A stretch of 46,925 bases of DNA, taken from contig JAOUMT010000003.1 of the NCBI GenBank assembly GCA_029881355.1, forward strand, positions 1 through 46,925, read 5' to 3'. The DNA comes from Acidimicrobiia bacterium. GTDB lineage: Bacteria; Actinomycetota; Acidimicrobiia; Spongiisociales; JAENVV01. Below the pieces are notes generated by a model. That model had not been told where the DNA came from and ran no database searches. It saw nothing but the letters and a program-made list of their open reading frames with translations. Positions 2,499 to 24,277 of the stretch are shown here, one piece after another; position 1 is the first letter of the stretch; each line of letters begins with the position of its first letter. Position numbers and translations under genes: made by a program.

Positions 2499-3749
2499 TT
2501 AGGCGAGAAACAGCGCAGGTTCCGCCAGGTTCTCCAACAGTCGAGCTACGAACTTGCGTCCGAGCGCCCCATCGATAACCCGATGGTCGTACGACAGGCT
2601 CAGCGGCATCATCGGCGCCACCACGACGACTCCGTTGCGGACGACTGCGCTGTCTTTGGCCCGGCCCACGGAAAGGATCGCCGTGGTGCCCAACGGAACA
2701 ATCGGCGTCCCGTGTCCTCCCCCAACCGCCCCGATATTCGAGACGGTGAACGTACCACCGGACATGTCATCGGCCCCAAGGGTGCGGTCTGCAGCTCCTG
2801 AAGCCAGTCGGGCAATCTCGGTCGCGATCTCCAGGACGGTGAGTAGGCCGGCATCGTGGACCACCGGAATCATCAGGCCATTGGGGGTATCGACTGCGAC
2901 CGCGATGTGATGGCGATGATGCACCACCATGTCGTTGCCGTTGACCGTGGCATTGAACTCCGGAAACTCGATCAGCGCTGGAACGACGGCCTTGACGACC
3001 AATGCTTCGAGCGTGATGTTCTGGCTATGACGAAGCGATAGGGCTTTGCGAGCTTGCAGGAGACGACTGGCATCCACCTCGTCGAACGTCGTGACCCGGG
3101 GAATCTCGGCCCACGACTGACTCATCCGATCGGCGATCGTCCGACGCAGCTTCGACATGGGGATGACCTCGTCGTCGGGACCGGCGACCGGAGCGGCCTG
3201 CCTGGCTACCACCGGTACGGCATCATCAGCCTTGGCCTCAATCGCAGCCATGACGTCGGCTCTTGTGATCTGGCCGTCGGGTCCGGTACCGGTCACGGAT
3301 GCCAGGTCGACACCCTGGTCCTTCGCCAGTTTTCTCACCAGCGGTAGGGCCAACACCCGAGGGGCGGCAGCGTTGACGGATTCGGTCCGGCGACCCAGCG
3401 TCGTGGTCCCCTTTCCGAAACTACCGACCAGGGGCGGGTCCACTTCCGGATCGGGGATCTCGTCGTTCGCGAGAGGTGTCGTTGCCCCGGCAGGTGATGG
3501 GCTGTCGTCTTGTGAGCCGTCGTCGATGACAGCCAACACCGAACCGACTTTGATCGTCTCGCCGGCCGCGGCACCGTGACGGACAACAACACCGGCAACG
3601 GGTGCGGGCATGACAACCACGGTTTTGTCCGTTTCAACCTCTACAAGGGGATCGTCGAGTCCAACTGATTCCCCTTCGGCTACCAGCCAAGAGACAATCT
3701 CTGCTTCAACGAGCCCTTCACCTATGTCGGGCAGCACGAAGTTGCGCAT
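2499..3749 (-). CDS. 2-oxoacid dehydrogenase E2 (dihydrolipoamide acyltransferase)
   Basis: Lipoyl domain (LPDIGEGL...VETDK), E3-binding domain (PLVRKLAKDQGVDL...GTGPDGQIT), catalytic DHRVIDGA. Start re-called at ATG 3749 (TAATG overlap with the E1-beta stop) rather than 3845. Confidence 0.93.
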   Translation of the reverse strand: MRNFVLPDIGEGLVEAEIVSWLVAEGESVGLDDPLVEVETDKTVVVMPAPVAGVVVRHGAAAGETIKVGSVLAVIDDGSQDDSPSPAGATTPLANDEIPDPEVDPPLVGSFGKGTTTLGRRTESVNAAAPRVLALPLVRKLAKDQGVDLASVTGTGPDGQITRADVMAAIEAKADDAVPVVARQAAPVAGPDDEVIPMSKLRRTIADRMSQSWAEIPRVTTFDEVDASRLLQARKALSLRHSQNITLEALVVKAVVPALIEFPEFNATVNGNDMVVHHRHHIAVAVDTPNGLMIPVVHDAGLLTVLEIATEIARLASGAADRTLGADDMSGGTFTVSNIGAVGGGHGTPIVPLGTTAILSVGRAKDSAVVRNGVVVVAPMMPLSLSYDHRVIDGALGRKFVARLLENLAEPALFLA

Positions 3750-4726
3750 TATGCGTCCAGGGTGCGACGGGCCGCCGCCACGATTGCCTCGGTGGTGGGC
3801 ATATAACGATGCTCCGCTTTCTTCAGCGGAATCGTTGTGTCCCAACCTGCGACTCGTTCAACCGGAGCGTGCAGCGAATACAGGGCGCGTTCACCAATGA
3901 GGGCGGCGATCTCGGCTCCGAAACCTGCTGTTTTGGGGGCTTCCTGGACGACCACGGCCCTTCCGGTCTTCTGGACAGAATCGATGATCGCATCTTCATC
4001 AAGGGGCCGAAGGGTCCGCAAGTCGACCATCTCGGCGGAGATTCCGTCGGCAGCCAGCACTTCGACGGCTTCGCGAACCTCGTGGGTCATCGCCCCCCAG
4101 GTAATGATCGACACATCCGACCCTTCGGTCTCGATGCGCGCCTTCCCGATCTCCACGGTGTAATAGCCCTCGGGAACTTCCTCGCGGACGAGTCGATAAA
4201 GCCGGATCGGTTCAAGGAATATGACCGGATCCGGGGAGTCGATCGCCGCCAGCAGTAATCCCTTGGCATCGTACGGGGTCGCGGGTATGACGACCTTGAG
4301 GCCCGGGATGTGCGCGTATATGGCCTCGGTGGACTCGGAGTGATGTTCGGCAGCTCCAAACCCGCCACCGCACGGCATTCGGATGACCATCGGTGCGCTA
4401 AATCGGTGTTGTGACCGATTCCGAATCCGGGCTACATGGCTCAAAATCTGGTCGTAGGCAGGATACGAGAACCCCATGAACTGAATTTCGGCAACCGGGC
4501 GAAGTCCGGCGACGGCCATGCCGAACGCCGCACCAACTATGCCCGATTCGGCCACGGGAGTATCGATGACCCGTTGGTCGCCAAATCGGCCGATGAGCCC
4601 ATCGGTGATCCGAAACACCCCACCGGTCTGGCCGACGTCTTCCCCAATAACCAGCACCCGCTGGTCCTTGTCCAACGCAGTTGCGAGGGCATCGGTCAAG
4701 GCCCCGGCGAGGGTGAGTTCGCTCAT
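3749..4726 (-). CDS. pdhB: 2-oxoacid (pyruvate/branched-chain) dehydrogenase E1 beta subunit
   Basis: GEDVGQTGGVFRIT, DTPVAESGIVG, AEIQFMGF, EHHSES, DLRTLRPLD. ATGA overlap with E1 alpha. Confidence 0.92.
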   Translation of the reverse strand: MSELTLAGALTDALATALDKDQRVLVIGEDVGQTGGVFRITDGLIGRFGDQRVIDTPVAESGIVGAAFGMAVAGLRPVAEIQFMGFSYPAYDQILSHVARIRNRSQHRFSAPMVIRMPCGGGFGAAEHHSESTEAIYAHIPGLKVVIPATPYDAKGLLLAAIDSPDPVIFLEPIRLYRLVREEVPEGYYTVEIGKARIETEGSDVSIITWGAMTHEVREAVEVLAADGISAEMVDLRTLRPLDEDAIIDSVQKTGRAVVVQEAPKTAGFGAEIAALIGERALYSLHAPVERVAGWDTTIPLKKAEHRYMPTTEAIVAAARRTLDA

Positions 4727-5742
4727 GACGTCACCTGTTCAAATTGACGTCTGAGGTCCGGCGACATCTCCTCGTACACCGCCCCGAAGATATCTTCGGG
4801 TGATGGCGGTAGCAAGGATTCGGCCAACTCGACCGCCCGCTCGATGGTGGTCGAGGCTTTGGCCTGGACCGCCTCCTCCCAGTCGGCATCCCAGGCCCCT
4901 TCGTGCTCGAGATACCGGCGCACCCGCTCGATGGGATCCCGGTCCAGCGCCAACCGTTCCTCTTCGGGATCGCGGTAGCGCCCCGGATCGTCGTTGGTCG
5001 TGTGGGGGCCGACCCGGTAGGTAACCGCCTCGATGAGCGTCGCTCCCTCGCCGGCTCTGGCCCGATCAACCGCTTCTTTGGTTGCTTCGTAGACCGCAAA
5101 GAGGTCGTTGCCGTCGACTTGTTCGCCGACCATGCCATACGCATCCGCCTTTTGGGCGATCGTATCTGAAGCGGTTTGGCGCTCGCGCGGCATGGAGATC
5201 GCGTACCCGTTGTTCTGACACAGGAATACGGTGGGCGTCTTGAAAACCCCGGCAAAGTTCATGGCCTCGTGAAAATCCCCCTCAGACGTGGCCCCATCGC
5301 CAAAGTACGTTATCGCGATTCGGTCCGTCCCTTGCAGCTTTTCAGCCCAGCTGATCCCGACCGCATGGATCATATGGGCGCCCACGGTGATCGAAGGCGG
5401 AAGCACATCAACATGAACTGGTGGCCGTCCTCCCCGTTCGTCACCTGAGCGAGACAACAGCAGGACCTCCCACGGATACCCCTGCATCCACATTGCGCCG
5501 GCATCGCGGTAGGTCGCCACCATCCAGTCATGCGGATCCAGTGCGGCGGCCGAACCAACCTGGGCAGCCTCCTGACCGAGCAACGGTGCGTAAGTAGCCA
5601 GGCGACCCTGGCGCTGAAGGGTCGTGCCCTTCTTGTCATAAGCCCTTGTCTCGATAAGAGCCCGGTAGAGCCGACGGGTGGTTTCGATGTCGATTGGGGC
5701 TTCCCCGACGAGACGCCCCTCCAAATCAAGAATGTTTCGCAT
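4723..5742 (-). CDS. pdhA: 2-oxoacid (pyruvate/branched-chain) dehydrogenase E1 alpha subunit
   Basis: LQRQGRL, GQEAAQVG, TPP motif FGDGATSEGDFHEAMNFA...CQNNGYAIS, YRVGPHTTNDDP. Start re-called at ATG 5742 (MRNILDLEG). Substrate (pyruvate vs branched-chain) cannot be resolved by eye. Confidence 0.9.
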   Translation of the reverse strand: MRNILDLEGRLVGEAPIDIETTRRLYRALIETRAYDKKGTTLQRQGRLATYAPLLGQEAAQVGSAAALDPHDWMVATYRDAGAMWMQGYPWEVLLLSRSGDERGGRPPVHVDVLPPSITVGAHMIHAVGISWAEKLQGTDRIAITYFGDGATSEGDFHEAMNFAGVFKTPTVFLCQNNGYAISMPRERQTASDTIAQKADAYGMVGEQVDGNDLFAVYEATKEAVDRARAGEGATLIEAVTYRVGPHTTNDDPGRYRDPEEERLALDRDPIERVRRYLEHEGAWDADWEEAVQAKASTTIERAVELAESLLPPSPEDIFGAVYEEMSPDLRRQFEQVTS

Positions 5743-5820
5743 ATTGGGCCAGGCTACTCGGCGCGAGTCACCTCCAAACCACCAGACCGCGACGATATCC
5801 TTCAACTAGATCCTTCAACT

Positions 5821-6224
5821 ATGAGCCGATTCCTTCGAATTCACAGCCCCCTGCTGGATCCCTCGTCTTGGGCCCACACCGCGAATGCCCTCTCGCTGGC
5901 TGGCCACGTTGCGAACGTACCGGACCTGCGGGCCTTTGCGGCTGCGACGACCCGCCTGCGGCCTTCCAGCTAGACGTCCACGGGCAGCCCGTATCCGGGT
6001 TTGCGAGCCGAGTCGGAGGCCGATGCCCCGGCGGTACCTATGCGTCAACGACTCACCGATCGACACCTCTGACCGATGGAAGCCTCGCGGCGGTGGCCTA
6101 TGTGCAACTCAGCACGGCATACGACAAAGACCGGATCGAGGCAGAACGGCGAGGCTGGAGGACCTTCATCGGGAAGAGAAACCACATGGCGACGCTGAAT
6201 GATCCTGAGAACGTGGCGGCATGA
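5821..6224 (+). pseudogene. Degraded alpha/beta-hydrolase (frameshift/stop plus large internal deletion)
   Basis: N-terminal piece MSRFLRIHSPLLDPSSWAHTANALSLAGHVANVPDLR (stop at 5971-5973) and, in another frame, C-terminal piece AYVQLSTAYDKDRIEAERRGW...HMATLNDPENVAA. These resemble the two ends of actinobacterial alpha/beta hydrolases; the central nucleophile region is absent. Confidence 0.6.
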
Positions 6225-6295
6225 GAACAGAGATCGCCAACTCCTAGCCGAATCTCACTGTGGCATCGGCGGGCGGACCCAATGCCGACGGACGA

Positions 6296-7228
6296 TCACG
6301 CCTCGCTCGACGCGGCGCCTGCTATCACCGCGTCGACGATCATTTCCACAACCTGTTGGATCGCATCATCGAGCTGTTCCATCGAGATAATCGGAACACC
6401 GTGTTGTCTCGCGCACGATTGGACATAGCGGTCAATTCGGCGCACCTCGTCGAAGGCATCGAGGTACCGATCCGCGCTGCGCTGCGTAGCTTGTTCGGCG
6501 CGCGCCCGAAAGTGAGCCCGGTGGACTTCCGCATCGTTGACGACCAAGACGGTTTGGCAAATTACGGCGCGCTTGGACCACAGTTCCACTCCGTCGTCAT
6601 AGAGACCAGGAACCATGTGAACGCCCTCTACCACCAGCCCCGTGCCTTCCTTTATGGCACGATCAATCAGGCCGCGCACGCCGGTCGAGACCATGTCGAC
6701 CTGACTCTGGAAACCGACGATGACGGGATCGTGGTCGGGAGGAACGGGTGAGCGGAGTGCCTGGTGGGCTTCGAATGACGAAACGTGCAACATGGGAGCC
6801 AAAGTGTCCGCCACGAGCTGGCGCATCACTTGGCGCACCGCGTCGGTCGGAATCACGCTGGAGATCCGGAGCCGAGCCCCAACCTCCCCGGCTACAGAGG
6901 ACTTACCGACTCCAGGAGCACCGCCGAGCAGGACGATGATGGGCTTGCCGCGCCGGCGGGCCTCCAACCAGGCAACATATCGATCGGCCGAACCAACTCC
7001 CAGGTGAGACTCGATAGATCTCGTGGTGATGTCCATCAGGTCCTCAATGGCGATTTCGGGAAGTCTTCGTTCCAAGAGTCGCGCCTCCGTCTCTTCCGCA
7101 ATCGTGTAGGCGGTCTCGGGCTCGATCCCCACAACAATCATGGACGATGCCGCGACGAACTTGGAAAACGGCAGCGGGTTCTCTCGCCGGTCAAGTACCC
7201 AGATGTAGTGTCCCGCCTGGCTAACCAT
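6296..7228 (-). CDS. pgk2: 2-phosphoglycerate kinase (ATP-cone plus P-loop; cDPG pathway)
   Basis: N-terminal ATP-cone-like PLPFSK...AYTIAEE, then PIIVLLGGAPGVGKSSVA, IPTDAVRQVMR, LHVSSFEAH and VVEGVHMVPG, as in archaeal 2PGK. Start re-called at ATG 7228 with a GGAG RBS. Confidence 0.85.
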   Translation of the reverse strand: MVSQAGHYIWVLDRRENPLPFSKFVAASSMIVVGIEPETAYTIAEETEARLLERRLPEIAIEDLMDITTRSIESHLGVGSADRYVAWLEARRRGKPIIVLLGGAPGVGKSSVAGEVGARLRISSVIPTDAVRQVMRQLVADTLAPMLHVSSFEAHQALRSPVPPDHDPVIVGFQSQVDMVSTGVRGLIDRAIKEGTGLVVEGVHMVPGLYDDGVELWSKRAVICQTVLVVNDAEVHRAHFRARAEQATQRSADRYLDAFDEVRRIDRYVQSCARQHGVPIISMEQLDDAIQQVVEMIVDAVIAGAASSEA

Positions 7229-7291
7229 AGGACTCCATTGGTTTCGGTGATGCCGGAATGCACCCTGCCATACGGCTAGTATGACACCCCG

Positions 7292-8128
7292 ATGGCTTCT
7301 CTGACGATCGCCCAACTCTCTGATCTTCATTGCGGTTCACCCTTTTTCGACCCCGCACTGCTATCAGCGGCGGTCAACGAGATTCTCGATCTGAAACCCG
7401 ACCTCGTTGTGGTAGCCGGCGACCTAACACAGGAGGGCTACGCCGAGGAGTTCGAGATGGCTCGTGACTTCCTGCGGCCCTTGCGACAAGCCTTCACCAC
7501 GGTCATCGTGCCCGGCAACCACGATTCGAAAAACGTCGGATATCTCCACTTTCACGACCATTTCGGGAAAGGCAACACAGACTCCAAAGGCGACTTTTCA
7601 CTTTCCCTGACCACGGACGCCTATCCACGGTCGACCAAGATCGTGGCAGTGGACAGTTCCAAGCCTGACCTGGCCGAAGGAGAAATCGGTAGGTCTCGAT
7701 ACGAGTGGATCCGCCAGGAATTCGACGACCCGGCCGACCTGCGGCTCTTCGTCATGCACCACCACCTCGTGTCGGTGCCGGGCACCGGCCGGGAACGAAA
7801 CATCGTCTGGGACGCCGGTGACGTCATGGCCCTGCTCGAGGACGTCGACGTCGACATCGTCCTGGCCGGTCACAAGCATGTCCCCCACGTCTGGCAGGTA
7901 GACCGGATGTTGATCATCAACAGCGGAACGGTTTCGTCGTATCGCCTGCGTGGCTACACCCGACCGTCGTACAACGTGGTTCGAATTGACGAAGCCAGCG
8001 TCGAAGTCACGCTCGTGTACCCGGGCTCTGGCCAGCAAACGGCTGCCTATTTTGACCGGGTAACCACCGAACTCACCCGTAACCCCGACATGGCAGGCAT
8101 GTTCTCGAAAGCCGCTTGGCGATGGTGA
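7292..8128 (+). CDS. Calcineurin-like metallophosphoesterase (CpdA/Icc-like)
   Basis: All five motifs present: SDLH, GDLT, GNHD, HHH, GHKH. Confidence 0.92.
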   Translation: MASLTIAQLSDLHCGSPFFDPALLSAAVNEILDLKPDLVVVAGDLTQEGYAEEFEMARDFLRPLRQAFTTVIVPGNHDSKNVGYLHFHDHFGKGNTDSKGDFSLSLTTDAYPRSTKIVAVDSSKPDLAEGEIGRSRYEWIRQEFDDPADLRLFVMHHHLVSVPGTGRERNIVWDAGDVMALLEDVDVDIVLAGHKHVPHVWQVDRMLIINSGTVSSYRLRGYTRPSYNVVRIDEASVEVTLVYPGSGQQTAAYFDRVTTELTRNPDMAGMFSKAAWRW

Positions 8129-8424
8129 TCCGCCTATTTCTCTCGGCAGTATCGGCGGCCGATTTGGACAAGCTGATCGCCATGTTCAAAGAAGATGTTA
8201 TTCCAGCCTTCGAGTCCGCTCCCGGATGCCTGGGCATCGAACTGATTCGCGCCGAAAAGGCCGGAGTTGGCGGCCTCATCGAAGGAGGCGTGATTATCCG
8301 ATGGGAGTCCGCCGAACACATGGAGTCGGCACTCAACGATCCGGCCATCATCCAGAGTCAGCACCGGGTCAGGGCGTTGCTGCGGCGCGAGCCATTACGC
8401 AAGGTCTACGAGGTTATCTCCTAG
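8122..8424 (+). CDS. Antibiotic biosynthesis monooxygenase (ABM)-like dimeric alpha/beta barrel protein
   Basis: About 100 aa with APGCLG...IRWESAEH...YEV pattern. Start overlaps the phosphoesterase stop (translational coupling). Confidence 0.7.
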   Translation: MVIRLFLSAVSAADLDKLIAMFKEDVIPAFESAPGCLGIELIRAEKAGVGGLIEGGVIIRWESAEHMESALNDPAIIQSQHRVRALLRREPLRKVYEVIS

Positions 8425-9708
8425 TCTCCGGTCCACAACCCTGGCCAGTTCACCGGTCCCACCGGCGACGGCAACCCGATTGTGGATGAGGCCGGCTTCA
8501 ATCCCCCGACTGGATGCCCACGGCAGAACCAGATCAACTGCCGCGGCTTTCACTTCGACGAGTATCAGGTCCGTCGTGGCTGCAGCCGCCAGATCGTCGC
8601 CGAGCCTGGTCCGATCGGACAAACTGTGAATCACCTCGACCGACGACGCTCCGAGTCGCGACAGATCGCTCGTCAGATGATCCTGGGCGAACTCCGGTGC
8701 GGTCGTAACAGCCAACACCCGCCGGCCCTCGACCGGCAATGATGGCTCAAGCTCATATCCCGCCGACAGGACTTTCATATCCGGATTCAGGTCGCTCAGG
8801 ACCTGTCGGAGGCGCCCAACCCGGCCTACCGATTGTTGATCGGGATCGACAATCACGACTGCGGTTGCCTGTTTGACCCGGAACGGACCCAGGTAGCCGT
8901 CGAGATATCCCGGATCGATATCGACGGGCATGACGAGCACATGGGCCTGTGCCTCAGCAGGAGGAAGGGCGGTGCCGCTCCCTTCGAAGATCATACGTTC
9001 GGGACCGAGCAGCTCAGCCGCGCTGACTCCGGCTGCAAAATTGTGGATATCGGTCTCACCAGAAATGCCTGCGCCGCATCGAAACGTACCGATGGTGTCG
9101 ACTCCGGCGAAGACGGCATCCTCGACGTAGTCGGAGGCTGCGTGCATGCCCAGCGCTGACAGTTCCGCGAGTCCCTCAATCGACGCGGTGAACTCCCCAG
9201 CTCGCAGAACCGTTGGCAACGCCGGACCGCCACGCCCCATCGTGACGATTGCCAGCTTGAGTCCGGTGTCCCGCCAATATCTCGCCAGTTCGATCGCGAC
9301 CGCCGTCTTACCGGTTCGTTTCCCGGTACCGCTTACCGCCACGGCAGGTATATCGGTAAGACGGGGGAATGTTGGAGGATCGAAACGGTAACCGGCTCCC
9401 TGATATCGGACATTCCTGGCCAACGCCAACGAAATCAGGGCGAATCGTTTCCGATGGTCGAGGACGGGTTCGTCACTGAGATCAATGACCACGTCCGGCG
9501 CCAGTGCATCGATGGTGTCGGCCAGCGCCTGTTCCGGATCGCCGACGACTACGGGCACCGAGAGATCCGGCGGGCGATCGGTTTTTTCGGTGCCTCCGAG
9601 GAACACTGCACCGACAATCTGATAACCGTCACTTGCGAGAGCGGAGAGCGCGCGTTCGACCACCGGCGGGTAATGCTGACCGTCGATGAGTACGAGGCAT
9701 CTCTGCAT
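8395..9708 (-). CDS. cpgS: Cyclic 2,3-diphosphoglycerate synthetase
   Basis: LIDGQHYPPVV, FLGGTEK, DLSDEPVLD, GTGKRTGKTAV, TMGRGGP, GMHAASDYVEDA, RCGAG, EGSG and VEVKAAAVD match the cDPGS family signature. Start re-called at ATG 9708 (TACGCT-N6-ATG). Confidence 0.9.
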   Translation of the reverse strand: MQRCLVLIDGQHYPPVVERALSALASDGYQIVGAVFLGGTEKTDRPPDLSVPVVVGDPEQALADTIDALAPDVVIDLSDEPVLDHRKRFALISLALARNVRYQGAGYRFDPPTFPRLTDIPAVAVSGTGKRTGKTAVAIELARYWRDTGLKLAIVTMGRGGPALPTVLRAGEFTASIEGLAELSALGMHAASDYVEDAVFAGVDTIGTFRCGAGISGETDIHNFAAGVSAAELLGPERMIFEGSGTALPPAEAQAHVLVMPVDIDPGYLDGYLGPFRVKQATAVVIVDPDQQSVGRVGRLRQVLSDLNPDMKVLSAGYELEPSLPVEGRRVLAVTTAPEFAQDHLTSDLSRLGASSVEVIHSLSDRTRLGDDLAAAATTDLILVEVKAAAVDLVLPWASSRGIEAGLIHNRVAVAGGTGELARVVDRRLGDNLVDLA

Positions 9709-9748
9709 CTGTGGAGCGTACCCTGGCCGGAATCCAAGCCGGGGCGGA

Positions 9749-12010
9749 TCAGTCCGAAACGCCGACCATTTGCTCGAGGTCATCGACGGTGACGAGTACG
9801 TCCCGGGCTTTGGAACCGTGTGACGGGCCGACTACCCCACGATTCTCAAGGACGTCCATGAGGCGTCCTGCCCTGGCAAACCCCACCCGGAGCTTGCGCT
9901 GCAGCATCGACGTCGACCCGAGCCCCGACCGGACCACCAGTTCGATTGCCTGGCGAATCAACTCGGCGTCTTCATCGTCGTCTTCGGCAGCTTGGACTTT
10001 GGCCTTCTCGGTCGAAGCCTCGATGACCTTGTCCTCATACTGAGCTTCCTTCTGCTTCTTCACCCAATTGACAACGGAGCGCACTTCTTCTTCCGACACC
10101 CAGGCACCTTGCACCCGGGCCGGTTTGGGATCCTTGGCGGTGACCAACAAAAGGTCACCCATGCCAACCAGCTTCTCGGCCCCGATGGTGTCAATGATGA
10201 CGCGACTGTCGGTCTGGGAAGCTACCGAAAAGGCCATCCGGGATGGGATGTTGGCTTTGATGACACCGGTGATGACATTCACCGACGGACGTTGAGTAGC
10301 AATCACCAGGTGGATGCCGACCGCTCGGGCCATTTGGGCGATCCGGACGATCGACGCTTCAACATCGCGACCCGCCACCATCATGAGGTCGTTGAGCTCG
10401 TCAATGAGGATCACGAGATACGGGAAACGATCGAAGCCGTCCTCGTCGACACCGCCAGCATCCCACTTTTCGTGATAGCCCCCGATGTCACGCACTCCGG
10501 CGTCTGCCAGGAGGTCGTAGCGGCGATCCATCTCCTCGACCGCCCACTTGAGCACCTCATTGGCTTTCTTCGGGTTGGTGATGACCCGGGTAAGGAGATG
10601 AGGAACTCCGTTGTACTGACCAAGCTCGACCCGTTTCGGATCAACCATGATCATCCGGAGCTCGTCCGGGTGAGTGCGCATAAGCAACGACGTGATCAAT
10701 GAGTTCATGCACGACGACTTACCAGCACCGGTCGCTCCGGCGATCAGAACATGTGGGAGTTCGGAGAGGTTCACCAGCGACGCACGACTGTTGATGTCCA
10801 TCCCCACGCCGACCACGGTGGGATGCGTCTCGTCCTTGGCTTCTTGGGATCGAAGTATGTCGCCGAGCGTGACCATGCGTCGTTTTCGGTTGGGTACCTC
10901 GACCCCGATGGCTGACTTGCCCGGGATTGGCGCCAGCAGTCGCACGTCCGGAGTCGCCATGGCGTAGGCGATGTCCGTCGCCAGATTGGTCACCCTGGAG
11001 ACCTTGACACCGGCCGCCAACTCGATTTCATAGCGAGTCACCGTCGGGCCGGGGACGATCTTGGTGAGCTTGGCGTCGACCCCATGCTGGCGAAGCGTTT
11101 CCTCAAGGTCGGCAGCGGTCTCTTCCAACGCCCTCCGGTTCTGACCTTCGGCTTTGCTCTCTCGCAGCAATTCGATCGGGGGCAGTTGATAGGTGCTGTC
11201 GGCTACCCGCCGGGGTGCCGGAGTCGACTCTTTCTTGGATTTCTTGGCCGGCTCGGGACGCGACTTGTCGGGGGTGCCCGATGGCTTCATCGGCTTGGGG
11301 CGGTGGGCCGACGGAGTCTTTTTCGCGACGTGTCGGGGCCGGGCCACTGGAAGTTTCGCTGGAATTTCGGACGTCAGGCCGCCCACCCATCCCTTGATTC
11401 TCGTCCCCACGGCTCGGAAACCGATGAACACTTCCCGCACACTGGTGCGAGTGGCGAGGAGAACCCCCATCGACGTAACGGCCGAAAGCACCACGAACGA
11501 GCCCCAAAAACCGATAACTCGACTCATTGGAAAGGCGACTAGCGACCCGATGGCTCCGCCCCTGGCGCGAACCAGGTCGGCATTGCCGAACAACTCAACC
11601 GCACCAGTGAGTAGATGGAAAAGCGAGAGCGCCCCGAAGTACGAGAGCGTGGTGCCGATACCAATCTTGCCGTAATCGTTGCGCGGATTCCCGATGATCA
11701 AAACGATGCCGACGGTGGCGAAAAGAATGGGAATGAAGTACGCCCACACGCCAAACAGCAGCGTCAGTCCCCCGTGGATCCAGTCTCCGAACGGTCCGGC
11801 CTTCCCGAAGAATGCCAGAGCCACGAGAATGCCAACAACGAGCAGGGCGACGCCCCACACATCATCGGTTTGGGATCCCAGCCTGCGCCGAAGCGATTCA
11901 AAAACGGAAGCCAGCGTGGTCCGTTTTTTGGCGGGGGTTTTTCTTTTGTTTGTCGAAGACACCCGTTTCCGACCGTTTGCCCCTGGACGGGTGGGTGTCC
12001 GTTTTGCCAT
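9749..12010 (-). CDS. ftsK: DNA translocase FtsK
   Basis: N-terminal transmembrane domain, GPTVTRYE, PHVLIAGATGAGKS, LIDELNDLMM, ATQRPSV, gamma domain STSMLQRKLRVGFARAGRLMD. Confidence 0.97.
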   Translation of the reverse strand: MAKRTPTRPGANGRKRVSSTNKRKTPAKKRTTLASVFESLRRRLGSQTDDVWGVALLVVGILVALAFFGKAGPFGDWIHGGLTLLFGVWAYFIPILFATVGIVLIIGNPRNDYGKIGIGTTLSYFGALSLFHLLTGAVELFGNADLVRARGGAIGSLVAFPMSRVIGFWGSFVVLSAVTSMGVLLATRTSVREVFIGFRAVGTRIKGWVGGLTSEIPAKLPVARPRHVAKKTPSAHRPKPMKPSGTPDKSRPEPAKKSKKESTPAPRRVADSTYQLPPIELLRESKAEGQNRRALEETAADLEETLRQHGVDAKLTKIVPGPTVTRYEIELAAGVKVSRVTNLATDIAYAMATPDVRLLAPIPGKSAIGVEVPNRKRRMVTLGDILRSQEAKDETHPTVVGVGMDINSRASLVNLSELPHVLIAGATGAGKSSCMNSLITSLLMRTHPDELRMIMVDPKRVELGQYNGVPHLLTRVITNPKKANEVLKWAVEEMDRRYDLLADAGVRDIGGYHEKWDAGGVDEDGFDRFPYLVILIDELNDLMMVAGRDVEASIVRIAQMARAVGIHLVIATQRPSVNVITGVIKANIPSRMAFSVASQTDSRVIIDTIGAEKLVGMGDLLLVTAKDPKPARVQGAWVSEEEVRSVVNWVKKQKEAQYEDKVIEASTEKAKVQAAEDDDEDAELIRQAIELVVRSGLGSTSMLQRKLRVGFARAGRLMDVLENRGVVGPSHGSKARDVLVTVDDLEQMVGVSD

Positions 12011-12104: not shown

Positions 12105-13733
12105 CTACACCTCGAGTACCACCGGGATCACCACGGGCTTGCGACTCGTTTCAGCCCGGATCACCTGCTGGGCGGCCAGCCGGACGGCTTTCTGATATTG
12201 GCCGAGCTCTGATTGCGGGTCCAATTCGGTAACGGCCGAACGGACCGCCTCGGCTGCTTTGGCCAAGATCCGGCGCGGGTCATCAGCGAAGCCGTGCGAG
12301 TCGATGTCCGGGCCGAGGATCACGCTGCTGTCCGAGCGCTGAACCCCCACGGTCACCACCACCACTCCGTCATCGGACAGGTGACCACGGGCTCTGAGCA
12401 CCGAGTTATTGACGTCGCCGGTCCCGTCGAAGTACACGTAACTTGCGTCAACCGCCCGGTTCGTCACATGGGTGCGATCGCCCTTGATCTCGATCATGTC
12501 GCCGTCCTCGAGGATGTTCACGTCGGGGACTTTCATCTGATCGGCAAGTTCGGCATGGGCTCGAAGATGTCGGTATTCGCCATGGACCGGAACAAAGCTC
12601 TTCGGGCGGATCACGTTGAGGAATGTGGTTAGTTCATCCCGAGCGGCGTGACCGGATACGTGGACCTTGGCGTTGCGGCCGTGATATACCCGGGCACCAG
12701 TCCGATTCAGCTTGCTGATTACCTTGGACACGGCCGCTTCGTTTCCCGGGATCGGCGTCGCCGAGATCAGCACCGTATCGTCTGGCTCGAGCGTTACCCA
12801 TTTGTGCCTGCCGGCCGCCATCAGCGACAGCGCCGCAAACGGTTCGCCTTGACTTCCGGTGGTTATCAGCAACTGTTTCTTGGCAGGAAGTTTCGTCAGT
12901 TCCTGAATCTCGACGATCTTGTCAGCCGGAATGTCGAGGACACCCAGCTCGGTTCCCACACCAGAAACCCGGTGCATTGACCGTCCGGCGAAGGCCACCG
13001 TCCGCCCGGCGGCGATCCCGGCGTCGGCGATCTGCTGAACCCGATGGACGTGGGACGCAAAGCAGGCCGCCACGACTCGCCCACCGGCCTTGGCGATGAT
13101 CTCCCCGATCTCGGAAGCGAGTGAGGTTTCCGATGGCACGAAACCAGGAATCTCGGCGTTCGTCGAGTCGGCCATGAGCAGGCGGACACCTTCCCGGCCG
13201 AAGTGCGCGAACTGCTGAAGGTCGGTCGGGCGACCGTCCACGGGGGTTGGGTCGAGCTTGAAGTCACCTGAATGGACGATGAAGCCCTCAGGCGTATCGA
13301 AGACGATACCGGCACCCTGCGGGATCGAGTGTGAGACCGGGACAAACATGAACCCGAAAGGCTTGTGTTCGATCCACCGATTGTCTTCACAACCGATGAA
13401 CTCGGCTTCGACACCGATCTCATCGACGCGCCCCCGTGCAAGAGCCACCGAGAGTTGGGTTCCGTACACCGGAACACCAGGGAACTCCTTGAGGAAATAG
13501 GCCAGAGCCCCGACATGGTCTTCGTGTCCGTGGGTCACGATGACACATTCGACATCCTGTTTACGCTCGATGAGCCACTCCCAGTTTGGGAACACCAGGT
13601 CGACGCCCAGCATGTCTGCTTCGGGGAACATGAGTCCGCAATCGATAAGGGCGATTTTGCCATCGTGCTCGATGGCCGCGCAGTTCCGACCGATCTCGCC
13701 CAGTCCGCCCAGGAATGTGATCTTCACACTCAC
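12105..13733 (-). CDS. rnj: Ribonuclease J
   Basis: FLGGLGEIGRN, THGHEDHVG, SHSIP, HSGDFKLD, DSTNAE, TGSQGEP, HVSGHA, PVHGEYRHL. Confidence 0.97.
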   Translation of the reverse strand: MSVKITFLGGLGEIGRNCAAIEHDGKIALIDCGLMFPEADMLGVDLVFPNWEWLIERKQDVECVIVTHGHEDHVGALAYFLKEFPGVPVYGTQLSVALARGRVDEIGVEAEFIGCEDNRWIEHKPFGFMFVPVSHSIPQGAGIVFDTPEGFIVHSGDFKLDPTPVDGRPTDLQQFAHFGREGVRLLMADSTNAEIPGFVPSETSLASEIGEIIAKAGGRVVAACFASHVHRVQQIADAGIAAGRTVAFAGRSMHRVSGVGTELGVLDIPADKIVEIQELTKLPAKKQLLITTGSQGEPFAALSLMAAGRHKWVTLEPDDTVLISATPIPGNEAAVSKVISKLNRTGARVYHGRNAKVHVSGHAARDELTTFLNVIRPKSFVPVHGEYRHLRAHAELADQMKVPDVNILEDGDMIEIKGDRTHVTNRAVDASYVYFDGTGDVNNSVLRARGHLSDDGVVVVTVGVQRSDSSVILGPDIDSHGFADDPRRILAKAAEAVRSAVTELDPQSELGQYQKAVRLAAQQVIRAETSRKPVVIPVVLEV

Positions 13734-15663: not shown

Positions 15664-16173
15664 ATGGCTACCCAGTACGATGCCGCTCCAGCGCTCACCA
15701 TCGATCTCAACAAGTCCTACACCGCCAAGCTTGAGACGAACCACGGTGACATCACCGTGGAACTCGACGCGGTAAACGCTCCACAGACCGTCAACAACTT
15801 CGTGTTCTTGGCCAGAGACGGCTTCTACGACGGCGTCATCTTCCACCGCGTCATCGAGTCGTTCATGATTCAGGGGGGCGACCCGACCGGCACCGGTCGC
15901 GGCGGACCCGGTTACAAGTTCCGCGACGAACTCGACTCGGGCGGTTCATACAGTCGGGGTACCCTGGCGATGGCCAATGCGGGGCCCAATACGAATGGCA
16001 GCCAGTTCTTCATCGTCCACAAAGACGCCGGCCTTCCCAACGACTACACCATCTTCGGCAAGGTACTCGACGGGATCGAGACCGTCGACGCGATTGCCGC
16101 GACCCCCACCGGCCCTGGCGACCGTCCGCACACCGATTGTGTCATTTCGTCGGTGGAGATCATCGAGAGCTAA
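15664..16173 (+). CDS. Cyclophilin-type peptidyl-prolyl cis-trans isomerase (cytoplasmic)
   Basis: APQTVNNF, FHRVI..FMIQGGDP.GTG.GGPGY, LAMANAGPNTNGSQFFI. Confidence 0.96.
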   Translation: MATQYDAAPALTIDLNKSYTAKLETNHGDITVELDAVNAPQTVNNFVFLARDGFYDGVIFHRVIESFMIQGGDPTGTGRGGPGYKFRDELDSGGSYSRGTLAMANAGPNTNGSQFFIVHKDAGLPNDYTIFGKVLDGIETVDAIAATPTGPGDRPHTDCVISSVEIIES

Positions 16174-16175
16174 TC

Positions 16176-16862
16176 ATGGCCACGCGCATCCTCTGGTTTA
16201 CCCTGTTCGCGGCCGCCTTGACGGCGTGTGGGGCGGGCGAGACCGTCGACCAATTTGACGCAACCGGTGCCACTTCCGACGCGGTTCAGACCACGGCAAC
16301 CGTCTCGCCGTTGCCGCCCACGACGGTCGGGACAACCGATGCGACGAACGATGCACCGAAGTCGTACGGTGCGCCACCTGACTTGATGATCGACCCGGCG
16401 GCTCAGTACACGGCAACGATGAGCACGAACCTGGGCGACATCGTAATCGCCCTGTTCGCCGACACCGCCCCCAACACCGTGAACAACTTCGTGTTCCTGG
16501 CGAATGAGGGGTACTACGACGGCGTCATCTTCCATCGGGTGATTCCGGGGTTCGTTGCCCAGGCCGGCGACCCGACGGGGACCGGCCGGGGCGGTCCTGG
16601 CTACGCCTTCGATGACGAACTCAACGACCCGCGCCCCTACACAAGGGGTATCGTCGCCATGGCCAACTCAGGTCCCAATACGAACGGAAGTCAGTTCTTC
16701 ATCGTCCACGAAGACGTCGGACTTCCCTACGCGTATACGATTTTCGGGGAGGTAATCTCCGGATTGGATGTCGTCGATGCGATCGCCGCCACACCCACCG
16801 AACCGGGTGACCGACCAACCACTGACATCGTGATCGAGTCCATAGCGGTCGAGGAGAGCTAA
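16176..16862 (+). CDS. Cyclophilin-type PPIase, lipoprotein
   Basis: Start re-called at ATG 16176. Signal peptide with lipobox LTAC, Thr/Pro linker, then a cyclophilin domain colinear with the upstream paralog. Confidence 0.93.
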   Translation: MATRILWFTLFAAALTACGAGETVDQFDATGATSDAVQTTATVSPLPPTTVGTTDATNDAPKSYGAPPDLMIDPAAQYTATMSTNLGDIVIALFADTAPNTVNNFVFLANEGYYDGVIFHRVIPGFVAQAGDPTGTGRGGPGYAFDDELNDPRPYTRGIVAMANSGPNTNGSQFFIVHEDVGLPYAYTIFGEVISGLDVVDAIAATPTEPGDRPTTDIVIESIAVEES

Positions 16863-20105: not shown

Positions 20106-22190
20106 ATGCGCGACCGCTCCATGTTGACTGAGATCCTGCCGGCCGAGGACCGGGCCATCGAAAAGGTGGTCGAACGGTACCAACGCGTCGCTCCGGCGGT
20201 GACCCGTTTCGCTCGCACGCTCTGCGGCAATCAAGAACTGCGAGTTCGCCTCGGTTCGGAGGCCCGGAGTTCTGACAGCGAGATCGTGGTCAACCCCGGT
20301 ATCTTCCAAGCCGCCTATTCACGGCGGGCTCCCGTCACGCCCGAAGAAGTCGCCCTGGCGTCGGCTCTGCACGAAGTCGTGCATCTCGTTTCGACCAACC
20401 TCGACGAACGCCGGCCACTTCCCCGCCAGTGGTTCACTGAAAGCGACGACATTCCCGAGGGTGAATTTGACCTGCTCGATGCCCTCGGACGAGCGGGCGG
20501 CGGAGCGGCCGAGGCGCTGTTCTTCGCACTGGAAGACGCCCGCCAGGAGAGACAAGGCCTTGAAATGTATCCGGGAGCGCGGTCGGTCCTGACGGATATG
20601 TACGTCGCAGCACTCAGCCAGGCGTTGTCAGAAGCCAAACCACTGACCCAGTTCGGGATCGCCTGCTTCATGCTGTTGGGCGGCCATGTGGACCGTGACT
20701 ACCTCGAAAAGAAGACGGACGGCCGGGTGGCGGTCGCCCTGGCCGACGCGGCTCCCTTCATTGAGGCAGCGGCCGAGAGCACCGATCCGTGGGAGATCGG
20801 AACGTTGGCGCTCCAACTGTTGAACGTCGCCAAACTCCACAAGATCGCGACACCCACATCGGAGACCGAAACTTCAGGTCAGAAGAAGGCCCGCGAGGAA
20901 CTCGACGAGTCATCGATCGCCGACGGCGTCGACGAGGTTCGCCTCCTCACCCCGATCCTGCAAGATAGCGAGACCTACGAAAAGACTCGCAAGGCTTCCG
21001 ATGCGCGAGCCGGGGAATCCATGCGCCGGGCCCCATCGGAAGTGGCCAGTCAGGAGTCCACCGATCAGATCCTCAAGGTGTCCCAGGCGCCGACGGTGTA
21101 CCTTCCCTCAGGGCAGGGGGGCAAACTCATCGTCGTACCGTTCCCCGACCGTTTCCGCCAGTGGGCTCCTGACGGTCGGGACCGACTGAAGGAGGCCACC
21201 CGACGCTGGCATATGGCCCAGGGACGGATCTCAGGCGAGTTGTTTCCGCTGTTCGCAGCCAACCAACGACGAGGTCTCCAGTCTGGCTTCGATGCCGGGG
21301 ACCTGTCACCGCACGCCCCGCTCCTGCTGGCTGGCGGCCTGTATGAGCGGATGTACGAACGACGAGCCAGGAGAACTCGGCGCTCATATGCCGTCAGCCT
21401 GTTGATCGACGGTTCGGCCTCGATGCTTCAGCCGCGCTCGATCGACGGAACGAGCAGGAAGTCACCGTGGGGGCTGGCGGCCGCCACCCTGGGCGCCTGG
21501 TCACTCGCCCAACTGTGCGACGAACTTCAGATCGATTTTGAGGTGGCGTTGTTCAATCGATCATTCGTCGCCGAACCACTCGACAACGAGTACGAATACA
21601 CCCGCCGATCGTCGCGAACGACTAGCGGCTTGCGTCGGACTCAGGGATCGAGTGCCGATCGGCTTTCGTCAACGGTCAATCACTACATGATCAAGTCGTT
21701 TCAGCAACGCTGGAGGTCAGTCAGCGACGTAATGGCAGGGTTGTTCTTTTCGGCCGCTGATGCCAGAACGGCGGCCGAGTACGCCCGGCGTGAACCTCGC
21801 GAAGCGCCACCTATTTCGATGTTCTCGAAAGGGGCGAACGTGGACGAATACAACGTCACCCACGCCGCCGAACGGATGGCCCGCCTGGGAGCGACCGTCC
21901 GGGTCCTCGTGGTCCTGGCGGACGGGATGACCCGCGGCTCGAGTGCCGAGCTTCAGGCGGCGGTCAAGCGGGCCGAGGGCAACGGAACGATCGTCTTGGG
22001 TATCGGGATTGGTGAAGACACGGTCGAGACGGTGTACCCCCGCTATCAGATTGTCGACCGCCCCGAAACGCTGGCCAGATCGGTGATCGAGGGAGTCAAG
22101 GGCTCGCTACGCAAATCACTCATCACCGAAGGATTTTCAAGCCGGACGTTCGCGTCCGAATTTAACTGGAAGGAAACGACCCATGTCTGA
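20106..22190 (+). CDS. CobT/NorD-like vWA-domain protein with N-terminal HExxH
   Basis: LHEVVH and LEDARQE in the N-terminal part; C-terminal vWA with LLIDGSAS (MIDAS), VLVVLADG and LGIGIG. Confidence 0.75.
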   Translation: MRDRSMLTEILPAEDRAIEKVVERYQRVAPAVTRFARTLCGNQELRVRLGSEARSSDSEIVVNPGIFQAAYSRRAPVTPEEVALASALHEVVHLVSTNLDERRPLPRQWFTESDDIPEGEFDLLDALGRAGGGAAEALFFALEDARQERQGLEMYPGARSVLTDMYVAALSQALSEAKPLTQFGIACFMLLGGHVDRDYLEKKTDGRVAVALADAAPFIEAAAESTDPWEIGTLALQLLNVAKLHKIATPTSETETSGQKKAREELDESSIADGVDEVRLLTPILQDSETYEKTRKASDARAGESMRRAPSEVASQESTDQILKVSQAPTVYLPSGQGGKLIVVPFPDRFRQWAPDGRDRLKEATRRWHMAQGRISGELFPLFAANQRRGLQSGFDAGDLSPHAPLLLAGGLYERMYERRARRTRRSYAVSLLIDGSASMLQPRSIDGTSRKSPWGLAAATLGAWSLAQLCDELQIDFEVALFNRSFVAEPLDNEYEYTRRSSRTTSGLRRTQGSSADRLSSTVNHYMIKSFQQRWRSVSDVMAGLFFSAADARTAAEYARREPREAPPISMFSKGANVDEYNVTHAAERMARLGATVRVLVVLADGMTRGSSAELQAAVKRAEGNGTIVLGIGIGEDTVETVYPRYQIVDRPETLARSVIEGVKGSLRKSLITEGFSSRTFASEFNWKETTHV

Positions 22191-23184
22191 AACTGTTGTA
22201 TTCGAGGATCCCACCGGCGAAGGAAAGGTCATCGAACTCGAAACCTTCCAGGTTCCCAAGTCCATTCCGGACTACGAGCACCGTATGAACAAGATTCCCG
22301 ACCCCGACCCTCACTACGTTGACCTCGGGATGCTGTACCGCTTTGCACAGGTCGAAAAGGTTCGACGCGAGAACTCAGACGCGTTTGTCCCGCTCCATGT
22401 GGCAGTTCGAGGCCATATGGGCACCGGCAAGGATCACGACATCGAGCAATTCGCCGCCCTCATCAAACTCCCGTACTTCCGAATCCCCCTGACTGGTGAA
22501 GTCCGCGACATCACTCTGATCGGATCGACGAAGCTGCACGGCGACGGGAAAGGTGGGACCGAATCACGCTGGGAGGACGGCGACATCACCAGGGCCTTGC
22601 GGGGACCCGCACTGGTGAACCTTTCCGAACTCAATGCGGCAGGGGCCGAGACCTTGTTCGCTCTCCACGGGTTGCTCGACCGGTACCAGGCGATCGACTT
22701 GCCGAACGGTGAGAACGTCGAACTGCGCGCCGACGTGCGACTCTTCGGCACGATGAACCCGACCGACCTGCGGGACTATGCCGGAACCCAGACCCTCAAT
22801 AAGGCATTCGCCGACCGGTGGGTTATCTGGCACAAACGGTTCCCGAATGCCGATCAGTTGCGGGCCATGATCACCAGACGCTATCCAACTCTGGCCGACC
22901 CATACGTCGAGGCGATCGCCCGTTTGGCAAGCGAAATCAACGAATCGTTCGAACAATCCGACGCCGGAACCCGCGTCGAAACCCCCATGAGCTTGCGTGG
23001 GACACTCGACCGCCTCCCGACCGGCCTGCAGATGTTTTCGGAGGCGGCCGATCCCCTCCGCAGGTCCTGGGAGGAGTTCGTACTTCCGCACGTCGACGAA
23101 TACGACCAGGATCACTACGAAACGGTCTGGAATGCCGTCGTGCGCAAGGGGCCAACGGAAAAACCCTATGGAGGGCTAGCCTAA
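22183..23184 (+). CDS. MoxR-family AAA+ ATPase (CobS/CbbQ/NirQ/NorQ-like)
   Basis: Walker A GHMGTGK, WEDGDITRA, Walker B-like VNLSELN, sensor FGTMNP, YAGTQTLNKAFADRW. Overlaps the vWA stop. Confidence 0.85.
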   Translation: MSETVVFEDPTGEGKVIELETFQVPKSIPDYEHRMNKIPDPDPHYVDLGMLYRFAQVEKVRRENSDAFVPLHVAVRGHMGTGKDHDIEQFAALIKLPYFRIPLTGEVRDITLIGSTKLHGDGKGGTESRWEDGDITRALRGPALVNLSELNAAGAETLFALHGLLDRYQAIDLPNGENVELRADVRLFGTMNPTDLRDYAGTQTLNKAFADRWVIWHKRFPNADQLRAMITRRYPTLADPYVEAIARLASEINESFEQSDAGTRVETPMSLRGTLDRLPTGLQMFSEAADPLRRSWEEFVLPHVDEYDQDHYETVWNAVVRKGPTEKPYGGLA

Positions 23185-23188
23185 GTCG

Positions 23189-24277
23189 ATGCGCAAATAC
23201 GAGATGGGTAACGAAGAAATCGACGCGGCGGTGGCCGCCCTCGTGGCCCAAGCCGATTCCAAACCCAACGAAGACCTGACCGCCGAAATCATCATCACCG
23301 CCTTGAAGTTGTACCGCGATGGCGCCGAACGTGGTGATCTGAAGCTGGTGAATACCGCACTCAAAGAAATGCGTTACTCGATGCTGGTCTTCTCGCGAGA
23401 TCGGCACCGCCCGAAAGTAACGATGTACGGATCGGCCAGAACCCCGAACAGCGACATCGAGTATCAGCTGGCGAAACGTTTCGCCGAAGTCATGGTCCAA
23501 CGCAGCTGGGCGGTCATCACCGGTGCCGGACCCGGCATCATGGAAGCCGGCAACGAAGGCGCCGGGATGGATGCCTCCTACGGGGTAAACATTCGGTTGC
23601 CGTTCGAATCGAACGCCAACCCATTCGTGTCCCCGGATCAGCTGATCAACTTCAAGTATTTTTTCACCAGGAAGCTCGGGTTCGTCAAAGAGTCGTCGGC
23701 CTTTGCCTTGTTCCCTGGCGGATTTGGCACCATGGACGAAGCTTTCGAGCTGCTCACGCTCACCCAAACCGGTAAATCCGACCTCCATCCGATCGTGATG
23801 GTCGGCTCCGAGCAGTCCACGTATTGGCAACGATGGAACGAATTCGTCGTCGACGAGCTCGTGGGGTCCGAATTGATTGCCCCCGAAGACCAGAACCTGT
23901 ATCGGATCACGGACGACCCGATCGTGGCAGCGGACGAGATATGCCACTTTTACGCCAACTACCGCTCCCAGCGCTATGTCGACGGCAAGCTCGTCCTACG
24001 GGTCACGCAAGGTCCCACCCCGGACCAGCTGACCGAACTGAACGATGAGTTCAGCGACATCCTGGTCTCTGGCGCCATCGAGTCAGTCGACCCGAGCAAC
24101 GCCGAGGTGCGTGACGGCGACGACCTGGAGGCGAGCCGACTCCAGCTGCATTTCGATCGTCGCCACTACGGGCGGCTGCGTTCGGTCGTGAACATGGTCA
24201 ACGACTGGGTCGCCACGCCCGAAATCGTGCATCCGGGCACCGCATTTACCGACGAGCAACAGGACCGCCCCTGGTAG
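23189..24277 (+). CDS. LOG family (TIGR00730) Rossmann-fold protein, long form
   Basis: YGSART, ITGAGPGIMEAGN, FKYFFTRK, PGGFGTMDE. Confidence 0.92.
   Translation: MRKYEMGNEEIDAAVAALVAQADSKPNEDLTAEIIITALKLYRDGAERGDLKLVNTALKEMRYSMLVFSRDRHRPKVTMYGSARTPNSDIEYQLAKRFAEVMVQRSWAVITGAGPGIMEAGNEGAGMDASYGVNIRLPFESNANPFVSPDQLINFKYFFTRKLGFVKESSAFALFPGGFGTMDEAFELLTLTQTGKSDLHPIVMVGSEQSTYWQRWNEFVVDELVGSELIAPEDQNLYRITDDPIVAADEICHFYANYRSQRYVDGKLVLRVTQGPTPDQLTELNDEFSDILVSGAIESVDPSNAEVRDGDDLEASRLQLHFDRRHYGRLRSVVNMVNDWVATPEIVHPGTAFTDEQQDRPW

Follow-up and report, generated by a model that had tools for sequence, protein, structure and literature searches.

Genes for a putative cyclic 2,3-diphosphoglycerate synthesis and turnover module in a bacterium of the class Acidimicrobiia

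The window analysed here, a stretch of 46,925 nucleotides (nt) comprising positions 1 to 46,925 of contig JAOUMT010000003.1 of an Acidimicrobiia bacterium (assembly GCA_029881355.1; 3.08 Mb in 319 contigs, rated 99.87% complete), carries between positions 6296 and 9708 four genes whose products are predicted to serve the synthesis and turnover of cyclic 2,3-diphosphoglycerate (cDPG). A first-pass annotation had described a locus of two genes, which encode a 2-phosphoglycerate-kinase-like P-loop kinase of 310 amino acids (aa; 6296-7228, minus strand) and a cDPG synthetase homologue of 437 aa (8395-9708, minus strand). Overlooked in that description were two plus-strand genes lying between them, encoding a calcineurin-like metallophosphoesterase of 278 aa (7292-8128), a candidate hydrolase of cDPG or of 2,3-diphosphoglycerate (2,3-DPG), and a small protein of 100 aa with an ABM fold (8122-8424). 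The ABM gene shares 7 nt with the phosphoesterase gene, across the stop of the latter, and 30 nt with the 3' end of the convergent synthetase gene, and the kinase and phosphoesterase genes diverge from an intergenic region of 63 nt (7229-7291). The synthetase gene had been placed directly downstream of ftsK (9749-12010, minus strand; Pfam FtsK_SpoIIIE at E 3.4e-59, with FtsK_alpha and FtsK_gamma), and this is correct, the two genes sharing a strand and the ftsK stop lying 40 nt ahead of the synthetase start. The adjacency is restricted to the genus (L093-L097); ftsK was not found in the examined stretches of other genera.

The kinase and synthetase genes are not chance open reading frames (ORFs), because their full-length homologies are strong and their synteny is conserved across five genomes of the same genus. 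The longest ORFs reach further upstream on the minus strand (6296-7330 for the kinase and 8395-9783 for the synthetase), and both of these longer forms were rejected: the kinase extension above the ATG at 7228 has a stop or a frame change in relatives, and the upstream part of the synthetase ORF bears stops in two of them (L096 and L097). As relatives carry stops or a changed frame upstream, the starts at 7228 and 9708 given in the first-pass annotation are taken to be the conserved ones, and the presence of the synthetase in the protein collection as a 437-aa protein also supports the second. A further minus-strand ORF (8073-8351, 92 aa) was dismissed as an antisense shadow of the ABM gene, its translation being of low complexity and belonging to no family. 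It has tblastn matches of 42-86% identity in all relatives despite its antisense origin, and illustrates that in G+C-rich DNA shadow ORFs may appear conserved. Positions 5600-9900 gave no match to Rfam at E ≤ 1. Within the divergent intergenic region, a -10-like TAGTAT box (7277-7282) stands 9 nt ahead of the phosphoesterase ATG and is found at the same spacing in eight of 11 aligned rows (the window and L093-L099), with looser forms in the other three. Because the box is kept in these eight rows, it suggests that the phosphoesterase gene has its own promoter and a leaderless or near-leaderless mRNA.

For the synthetase, both the gene and its family assignment hold. It matches the Methanothermus fervidus enzyme (PDB 8ORK and 8ORU) at E 1.8e-68, residues 3-405 of its 437 aligning with 6-424 of 460, and PDB 9SXB at E 2.4e-62. 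Identity to the solved enzyme is moderate, roughly 40% as read from the alignment, and the precomputed family PF27272.1 is assigned to the window protein and to 119 of the 120 relatives listed. According to the available part of the structure paper (PMC10690619), 2,3-DPG is contacted in the M. fervidus enzyme by E45 and K46, which come from the partner subunit, and by K145 and R146 of the Walker A loop, to which K149 and T150 also belong; the Mg ligands are T150 and D208, and E305, P335, T353, E404 and K406 lie around the nucleotide. On alignment to the solved enzyme, ten of these 12 named ATP, Mg and 2,3-DPG residues are identical in the window synthetase (E41, K42, K130, R131, K134, T135, D193, T336, E385 and K387, corresponding to E45, K46, K145, R146, K149, T150, D208, T353, E404 and K406), and the ten are invariant across 16 diverse relatives. 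The counterpart of E305 is D288, and for P335 no counterpart could be assigned, as the printed M. fervidus chain has F, by count, at position 335. The Walker A motif, GxxGxGK[T/S], reads GTGKRTGKT. Given that its contact residues for ATP, Mg and 2,3-DPG are kept, it may reasonably be inferred that the window synthetase makes cDPG. In one member of the same family (L101, G014:C8:14643-15971) the synthetase match contains a single in-frame TGA, which could be a sequencing error or mark a broken gene.

The synthetase reads DGQHY at residues 9-13, where the first-pass annotation gave DGEHY as the usual form, and the alignments bear this out. At position three of the motif, the 92 related loci (90 distinct sequences) have E in 80, Q in 11 and D in one. 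The change is not damage, because every Q row belongs to the window's family, where the 11 extend down to 54% identity; judged from these alignments, it is an old, fixed, family-specific substitution and not decay. We found neither a role for nor a mention of the third residue of DGEHY in the available text of the structure paper (PMC10690619).

The kinase gene and its family hold as well. Among the NCBIfam models the protein fits NF003259, '2-phosphoglycerate kinase', best (E 3.4e-84, covering 10-294 of its 306 positions), and the profile hidden Markov model search that had been proposed for this protein thus returned the expected family as the best one, at a score below its curated cut-off. 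A match to NF008994 reaches 256.6 bits against a cut-off of 603. The P-loop reads GAPGVGKS in the translation and the Pfam family AAA_33 is matched at E 1.3e-6. One unpublished relative (G025) has four kinase-like matches, three of them strong, while most relatives have one.

The phosphoesterase belongs to Pfam Metallophos (PF00149) at E 1.2e-19, with 71.9 bits against a cut-off of 21.5. The motifs DxH, GD, GNH[DE], H and GHxH of the metal site are all present (D11-H13, G43-D44, G75-N76-H77-D78, H156-158 and G193-H194-K195-H196), and they are invariant in 20 aligned sequences, as are four arginines (R134, R167, R169 and R220). There are also invariant blocks specific to this family (PGTGRERN, DAGD and RLRGYTRPSYN), and the lineage of the window is further marked by a conserved C-terminal tail and by an insert around residues 97-111. 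Its AlphaFold2 model (mean predicted local distance difference test score, pLDDT, of 82.9) has as nearest folds GpdQ (2DXL), Rv0805 and purple acid phosphatases, and the best match by sequence in the PDB is again GpdQ, at E 2.4e-10. With its metal site intact and its nearest folds those of phosphodiesterases and phosphatases, the protein points to hydrolysis.

The protein encoded by the following gene matches Pfam ABM (PF03992) weakly, at E 1.8e-4 and 22.1 bits, below the cut-off of 23.1, and has an atlas feature score of 0.96 to ABM clusters. The AlphaFold2 model (pLDDT 86.0) shows the order strand-helix-strand-strand-helix in a ferredoxin-like beta-alpha-beta fold of about 100 residues. At E ≤ 0.001 it matches 114 PDB entries, headed by members of the ABM family with template modelling (TM) scores of 0.7-0.8; among them are LsrG, Rv0793, TT1380 and IsdG, LsrG being first by a narrow margin. 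A search of the PDB with the alignment profile gave no matches at E ≤ 1. The gene comes directly after that of the phosphoesterase in 18 of the 18 positive relatives described below, even where the synthetase lies on another contig, and the pairing recurs in five of five genomes of another family, in which the ABM protein is 27-31% identical and the phosphoesterase, here unlinked to the synthetase, is 57-58% identical. Coupling of an ABM protein to a phosphoesterase is not known to us from elsewhere. Complex prediction for the two proteins gave a score of 0.00, below the mark, a result which has no bearing either way on binding.

The distribution of the four genes was followed in 41 genomes drawn from the same genus, family and order as the window, two of which genomes (G025 and G036) are unpublished. 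Synthetase, kinase, phosphoesterase and ABM gene are present in an identical set of 18 of these 41 genomes, or 16 of 39 when the unpublished pair is left aside. Even inside one family the pattern is patchy from genus to genus (six of seven genomes in g1, two of two in g2, none of four in g3, one of one in g4, two of two in g5, none of two in g6 and none of three in g7). Of the four genes, conservation is highest in the phosphoesterase, with identities of 91-97% within the genus and 64-68% across the order; the corresponding values are 71-90% and 53-56% for the synthetase and 84-87% and 40-46% for the kinase.

At the level of the phylum, an even sample of 251 genomes of at least 90% completeness (ten of them unpublished) was used. 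The synthetase occurs in 148 of these and the phosphoesterase, at E ≤ 1e-40, in 146. At that threshold both are present in 145 genomes and both absent from 102, three having the synthetase only (G058, G226 and G210, the last with a weak synthetase match of 1e-4) and one the phosphoesterase only (G155). The ten unpublished genomes are all among those positive for both, and without them the figures become 135, 3, 1 and 102 of 241. The kinase is likewise found in 148 genomes, accompanying the synthetase in 147; one genome has the synthetase only (G166) and one the kinase only, as a weak match (G129). With a synthetase relative in 148 of 251 genomes of the phylum, the pair is therefore not a rarity, and the description of it as an archaeal-type pathway in an actinobacterium overstates its oddity, all the more as archaeal synthetases group among bacterial ones (see below). 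A protein search gave 884 relatives of the synthetase at E ≤ 0.001 among 8000 candidates scored, and at least 570 confirmed relatives were found in a scan of one genome per species. Many of the 120 relatives listed already bear machine-given names, 'cyclic 2,3-diphosphoglycerate synthetase' (JGI) or '2,3-diphosphoglycerate synthetase' (NCBI; Acidimicrobiia and Actinomycetota metagenome-assembled genomes, MAGs). Among the Methanobacteria (71 genomes sampled, G286-G359) the synthetase was seen in 66, including records titled Methanobrevibacter, a range wider than the 'hyperthermophiles only' found in print.

Gene order was compared at 80 synthetase loci from genomes of other species, within a stretch examined around each. 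The kinase gene lies within that stretch at 70 of the loci, directly downstream of the synthetase on the same strand at 66. The phosphoesterase gene lies within it at 30, at 26 of which it is directly upstream on the same strand and at four convergent as in the window; in five of five genomes tested that had no adjacent copy, it is encoded elsewhere. A tblastn search gave no match to the window's ABM protein at any of the 26 single-strand operon loci. A 98-aa ORF upstream of the synthetase at nine other loci was considered and rejected as an ABM relative (hhalign probability 0.14, no Pfam match). Directly upstream of the synthetase, 14 loci of other Actinomycetota (L033 and 13 more) have a phosphoglycerate mutase gene of the archaeal, 2,3-bisphosphoglycerate-independent type (PF10143). 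A transaldolase-family gene is found downstream of the synthetase at 61 loci, and a mannosylglycerate-hydrolase-like gene nearby at nine.

The phylogeny with archaeal and bacterial homologues that had been proposed for the synthetase was carried out as a quick tree with midpoint rooting and Shimodaira-Hasegawa-like approximate likelihood-ratio (SH-aLRT) supports only, comprising 92 rows of which 90 are different (L021 was dropped as too short). The window synthetase falls in a clade of 17 rows from its own order, with a support of 100 and a long stem, and inside this clade the branching tracks genus and family. The four archaeal rows form one clade within an otherwise bacterial group of 20 rows. 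The tree does not support the idea that this organism acquired the gene recently from archaea, the window lying in the clade of its own order and the archaeal rows being nested among bacterial ones; with its midpoint root it gives no direction of transfer. Three synthetases from records of other affiliation (L032, titled Burkholderiales, and L025 and L040, Eubacteriales) branch with rows of Acidimicrobiia and Coriobacteriia. Mis-binning or mislabelling of the MAG contigs could account for this, and so could gene transfer.

Taken together, we lean, with confidence a little above even, towards reading the locus as a four-gene module for the synthesis and turnover of cDPG, where hydrolysis of cDPG or 2,3-DPG would fall to the phosphoesterase and its ABM partner. 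By homology, the kinase would convert 2-phosphoglycerate to 2,3-DPG and the synthetase would then spend a second ATP in closing the intramolecular pyrophosphate ring of 2,3-DPG to give cDPG. The phosphoesterase, to go by its co-inheritance, its hydrolytic site, its conserved arginines and its fold, may reopen the ring (cDPG to 2,3-DPG), dephosphorylate 2,3-DPG, or do both, and carbon and phosphate would thereby return to glycolysis. Co-inheritance and fold also suggest that it acts together with the translationally coupled ABM-fold protein. On such a scheme cDPG would be a regulated anionic pool, serving in osmotic balance and as a store of phosphate and carbon, and not a dead-end product. The layout resembles, by analogy, that of synthesis and breakdown genes kept jointly for other storage compounds.

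The earlier inference that this bacterium can make cDPG stands as far as the two families and the contact residues go, and falls short in treating the locus as one of two genes. Were it so, cDPG would be made as an end-product osmolyte or thermoprotectant, and the phosphoesterase and ABM genes would be unrelated neighbours. Two known enzymes do suffice for the archaeal synthesis, according to the part available of a recent report (10.1101/2025.02.21.639460), and at 50 of the 80 loci there is no phosphoesterase in the examined stretch. We nevertheless regard this simpler account as improbable, as all four genes share one pattern of presence and absence in the 41 relatives, the coupling of synthetase and phosphoesterase across the phylum is near-perfect (145, 3, 1 and 102), and a phosphoesterase that is not linked turns out, in five genomes of five, to be encoded elsewhere. 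The thermoprotectant role named in the first-pass annotation has, moreover, no support from habitat: the DNA sequencing runs listed with this DNA are labelled as sediment metagenomes, not as hot habitats (these being labels only). It is quite unlikely, in our estimate, that the phosphoesterase and ABM protein belong to the pathway in a non-catabolic capacity, such as metabolite repair, sensing or regulation, or a further conversion of cDPG. The ABM fold includes cofactor-free isomerases of small phosphorylated compounds, LsrG being marginally the top fold match, and strict co-inheritance implies that the proteins need metabolites of the pathway while leaving the reaction unspecified. Set against this, the intact metal site and the phosphodiesterase and phosphatase fold neighbours point to hydrolysis, and a hydrolase activity on cDPG has already been reported, without a gene.

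A different doubt concerns the chemistry itself, for the bacterial enzymes might use another substrate or make another product (a cyclic pyrophosphate other than cDPG, say, or no more than 2,3-DPG), and the name 'cDPG pathway' would then be a misnomer carried over from archaea. This we hold to be unlikely, if worth serious attention. The kinase scores 282.8 bits against the curated (equivalog) cut-off of 343 for NF003259 and also matches NF008996, mevalonate-3-phosphate 5-kinase, and its family thus holds other substrate specificities; the synthetase has Q where 80 of 92 related loci have E, a change in an otherwise nearly invariant motif, and its identity to the solved enzyme is only moderate; and a literature search, confined mostly to titles and abstract openings, found no measurement of bacterial cDPG. 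Yet the positions that contact 2,3-DPG (E45, K46, K145 and R146) and Mg (T150 and D208) are all identical, the pairing of kinase and synthetase is kept at 70 of the 80 loci, and the archaeal-type mutase just upstream at the 14 actinobacterial loci would make 2-phosphoglycerate. The kinase scores and the Q for E also weigh against a synthesis and turnover module, as do several other observations. The phosphoesterase gene is on the opposite strand in the window, and co-expression with the pair is therefore not implied. No hydrophobic segment was seen in its product when inspected by eye, without a predictor, whereas the archaeal hydrolase is membrane-bound. In the Methanobacteria the coupling is loose, 61 of the 71 genomes having both genes, five the synthetase only, three the phosphoesterase only and two neither. 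Related genomes are not independent, and the co-occurrence may therefore rest on few events of gain and loss, and the counts take in unpublished genomes. The same literature search found no assay of any bacterial member, and no RNA runs are listed for this DNA.

A further step, which is possible and which we put forward tentatively, would be that the phosphoesterase and ABM protein constitute the long-missing cDPG hydrolase system and that cDPG is a regulated pool in many uncultured Actinomycetota from samples labelled as sediment or soil. The available part of PMC1224877 describes in Methanothermobacter thermautotrophicus a hydrolase of cDPG that is bound to the membrane and that K+ and phosphate inhibit, attributes it to Sastry et al. 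(1992), a work also in the reference list of PMC10690619, and reads cDPG in that organism as a carbon and phosphate store besides an osmolyte. In the literature as searched, no gene assigned to a cDPG hydrolase was found, nor was the phrase 'cDPG hydrolase'. The co-inherited phosphoesterase, here with its ABM partner, is thus a concrete gene candidate for the hydrolase described in 1992, and an unrecognised hydrolase would matter for the biotechnological production of cDPG. In the abstract of the structure paper from 2023 (PMC10690619), cDPG is said to be exclusive to hyperthermophilic archaeal methanogens. The distribution of the genes, in both the phylum sample and the Methanobacteria, contradicts this statement, and if the bacterial enzymes work as their active sites suggest, cDPG would be a common metabolite of bacteria, though one never yet measured there. 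The remark in the first-pass annotation that no bacterial pathway has been characterised agrees with our search, in which no paper on one was found, mostly among titles and abstract openings. The locus represents a known pathway in a variant, bacterial form, which is widespread and already machine-annotated.

The remainder of the window provides context for the locus. Downstream of the kinase lie three pyruvate-dehydrogenase genes (2499-5805, minus strand), and upstream of ftsK lies the gene for RNase J (12105-13733, minus strand). The kinase stop is separated from the start of the gene for pyruvate-dehydrogenase E1-alpha by 490 nt (5806-6295), a gap which measures about 100 nt or less by tblastn coordinates in four of the five loci of the same genus (L093 and L095-L097; that of L094 was not worked out). 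The genome has only one copy of this stretch, none of its ORFs falls into a Pfam family, and Rfam gives no match to it. Further along, a tandem pair of cyclophilin-type peptidyl-prolyl isomerase genes (15664-16862) has a second member with about 90 extra N-terminal residues. At 20106-24277 a 694-aa ORF with no Pfam family is followed on one strand by genes for an AAA_5 (dynein-related) ATPase and a LOG/SLOG-family protein, which may form an uncharacterised three-gene unit.

Among known systems, the cDPG pathway of M. fervidus is built from the same two protein families. The synthetases align over nearly their full length, including the N-terminal domain, and have identical Walker A lysines and arginine, Mg ligands and partner-subunit E and K. 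The window protein differs in being about 20 residues shorter, in having Q for E in DGEHY and in having D for E305, and the pathway differs in its bacterial host, in the co-inheritance of its genes with the phosphoesterase and ABM protein, and in that the activity here is predicted only. The single-strand operons of other Actinomycetota contain the same three families, ordered phosphoesterase, synthetase, kinase at 26 of the 80 loci, whereas in the window the phosphoesterase lies between the pair on the opposite strand, is of a longer subtype and brings the ABM gene with it.

For the two additional proteins the resemblances are more distant. The phosphoesterase has the two-metal motif set of GpdQ from Enterobacter aerogenes (2DXL, 2ZO9 and 3D03) and of Rv0805 (2HY1 and 3IB7), with a fold match at E 3.6e-14 and a TM score of about 0.6, while sharing only about 20% identity with them and having its own invariant blocks, insert and C-terminal tail. 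The ABM protein has the fold and size of LsrG (2GFF and 3QMQ), Rv0793 (1Y0H) and IsdG, alongside the weak Pfam match, at identities of 10-24%. The hydrolase of M. thermautotrophicus catalyses the conversion of cDPG to 2,3-DPG, which is the reaction proposed for the phosphoesterase, and the phosphoesterase family is found in 64 of the 71 Methanobacteria sampled. That enzyme is membrane-bound and the window phosphoesterase has no obvious membrane segment, and the link between the two is accordingly put forward as a hypothesis.

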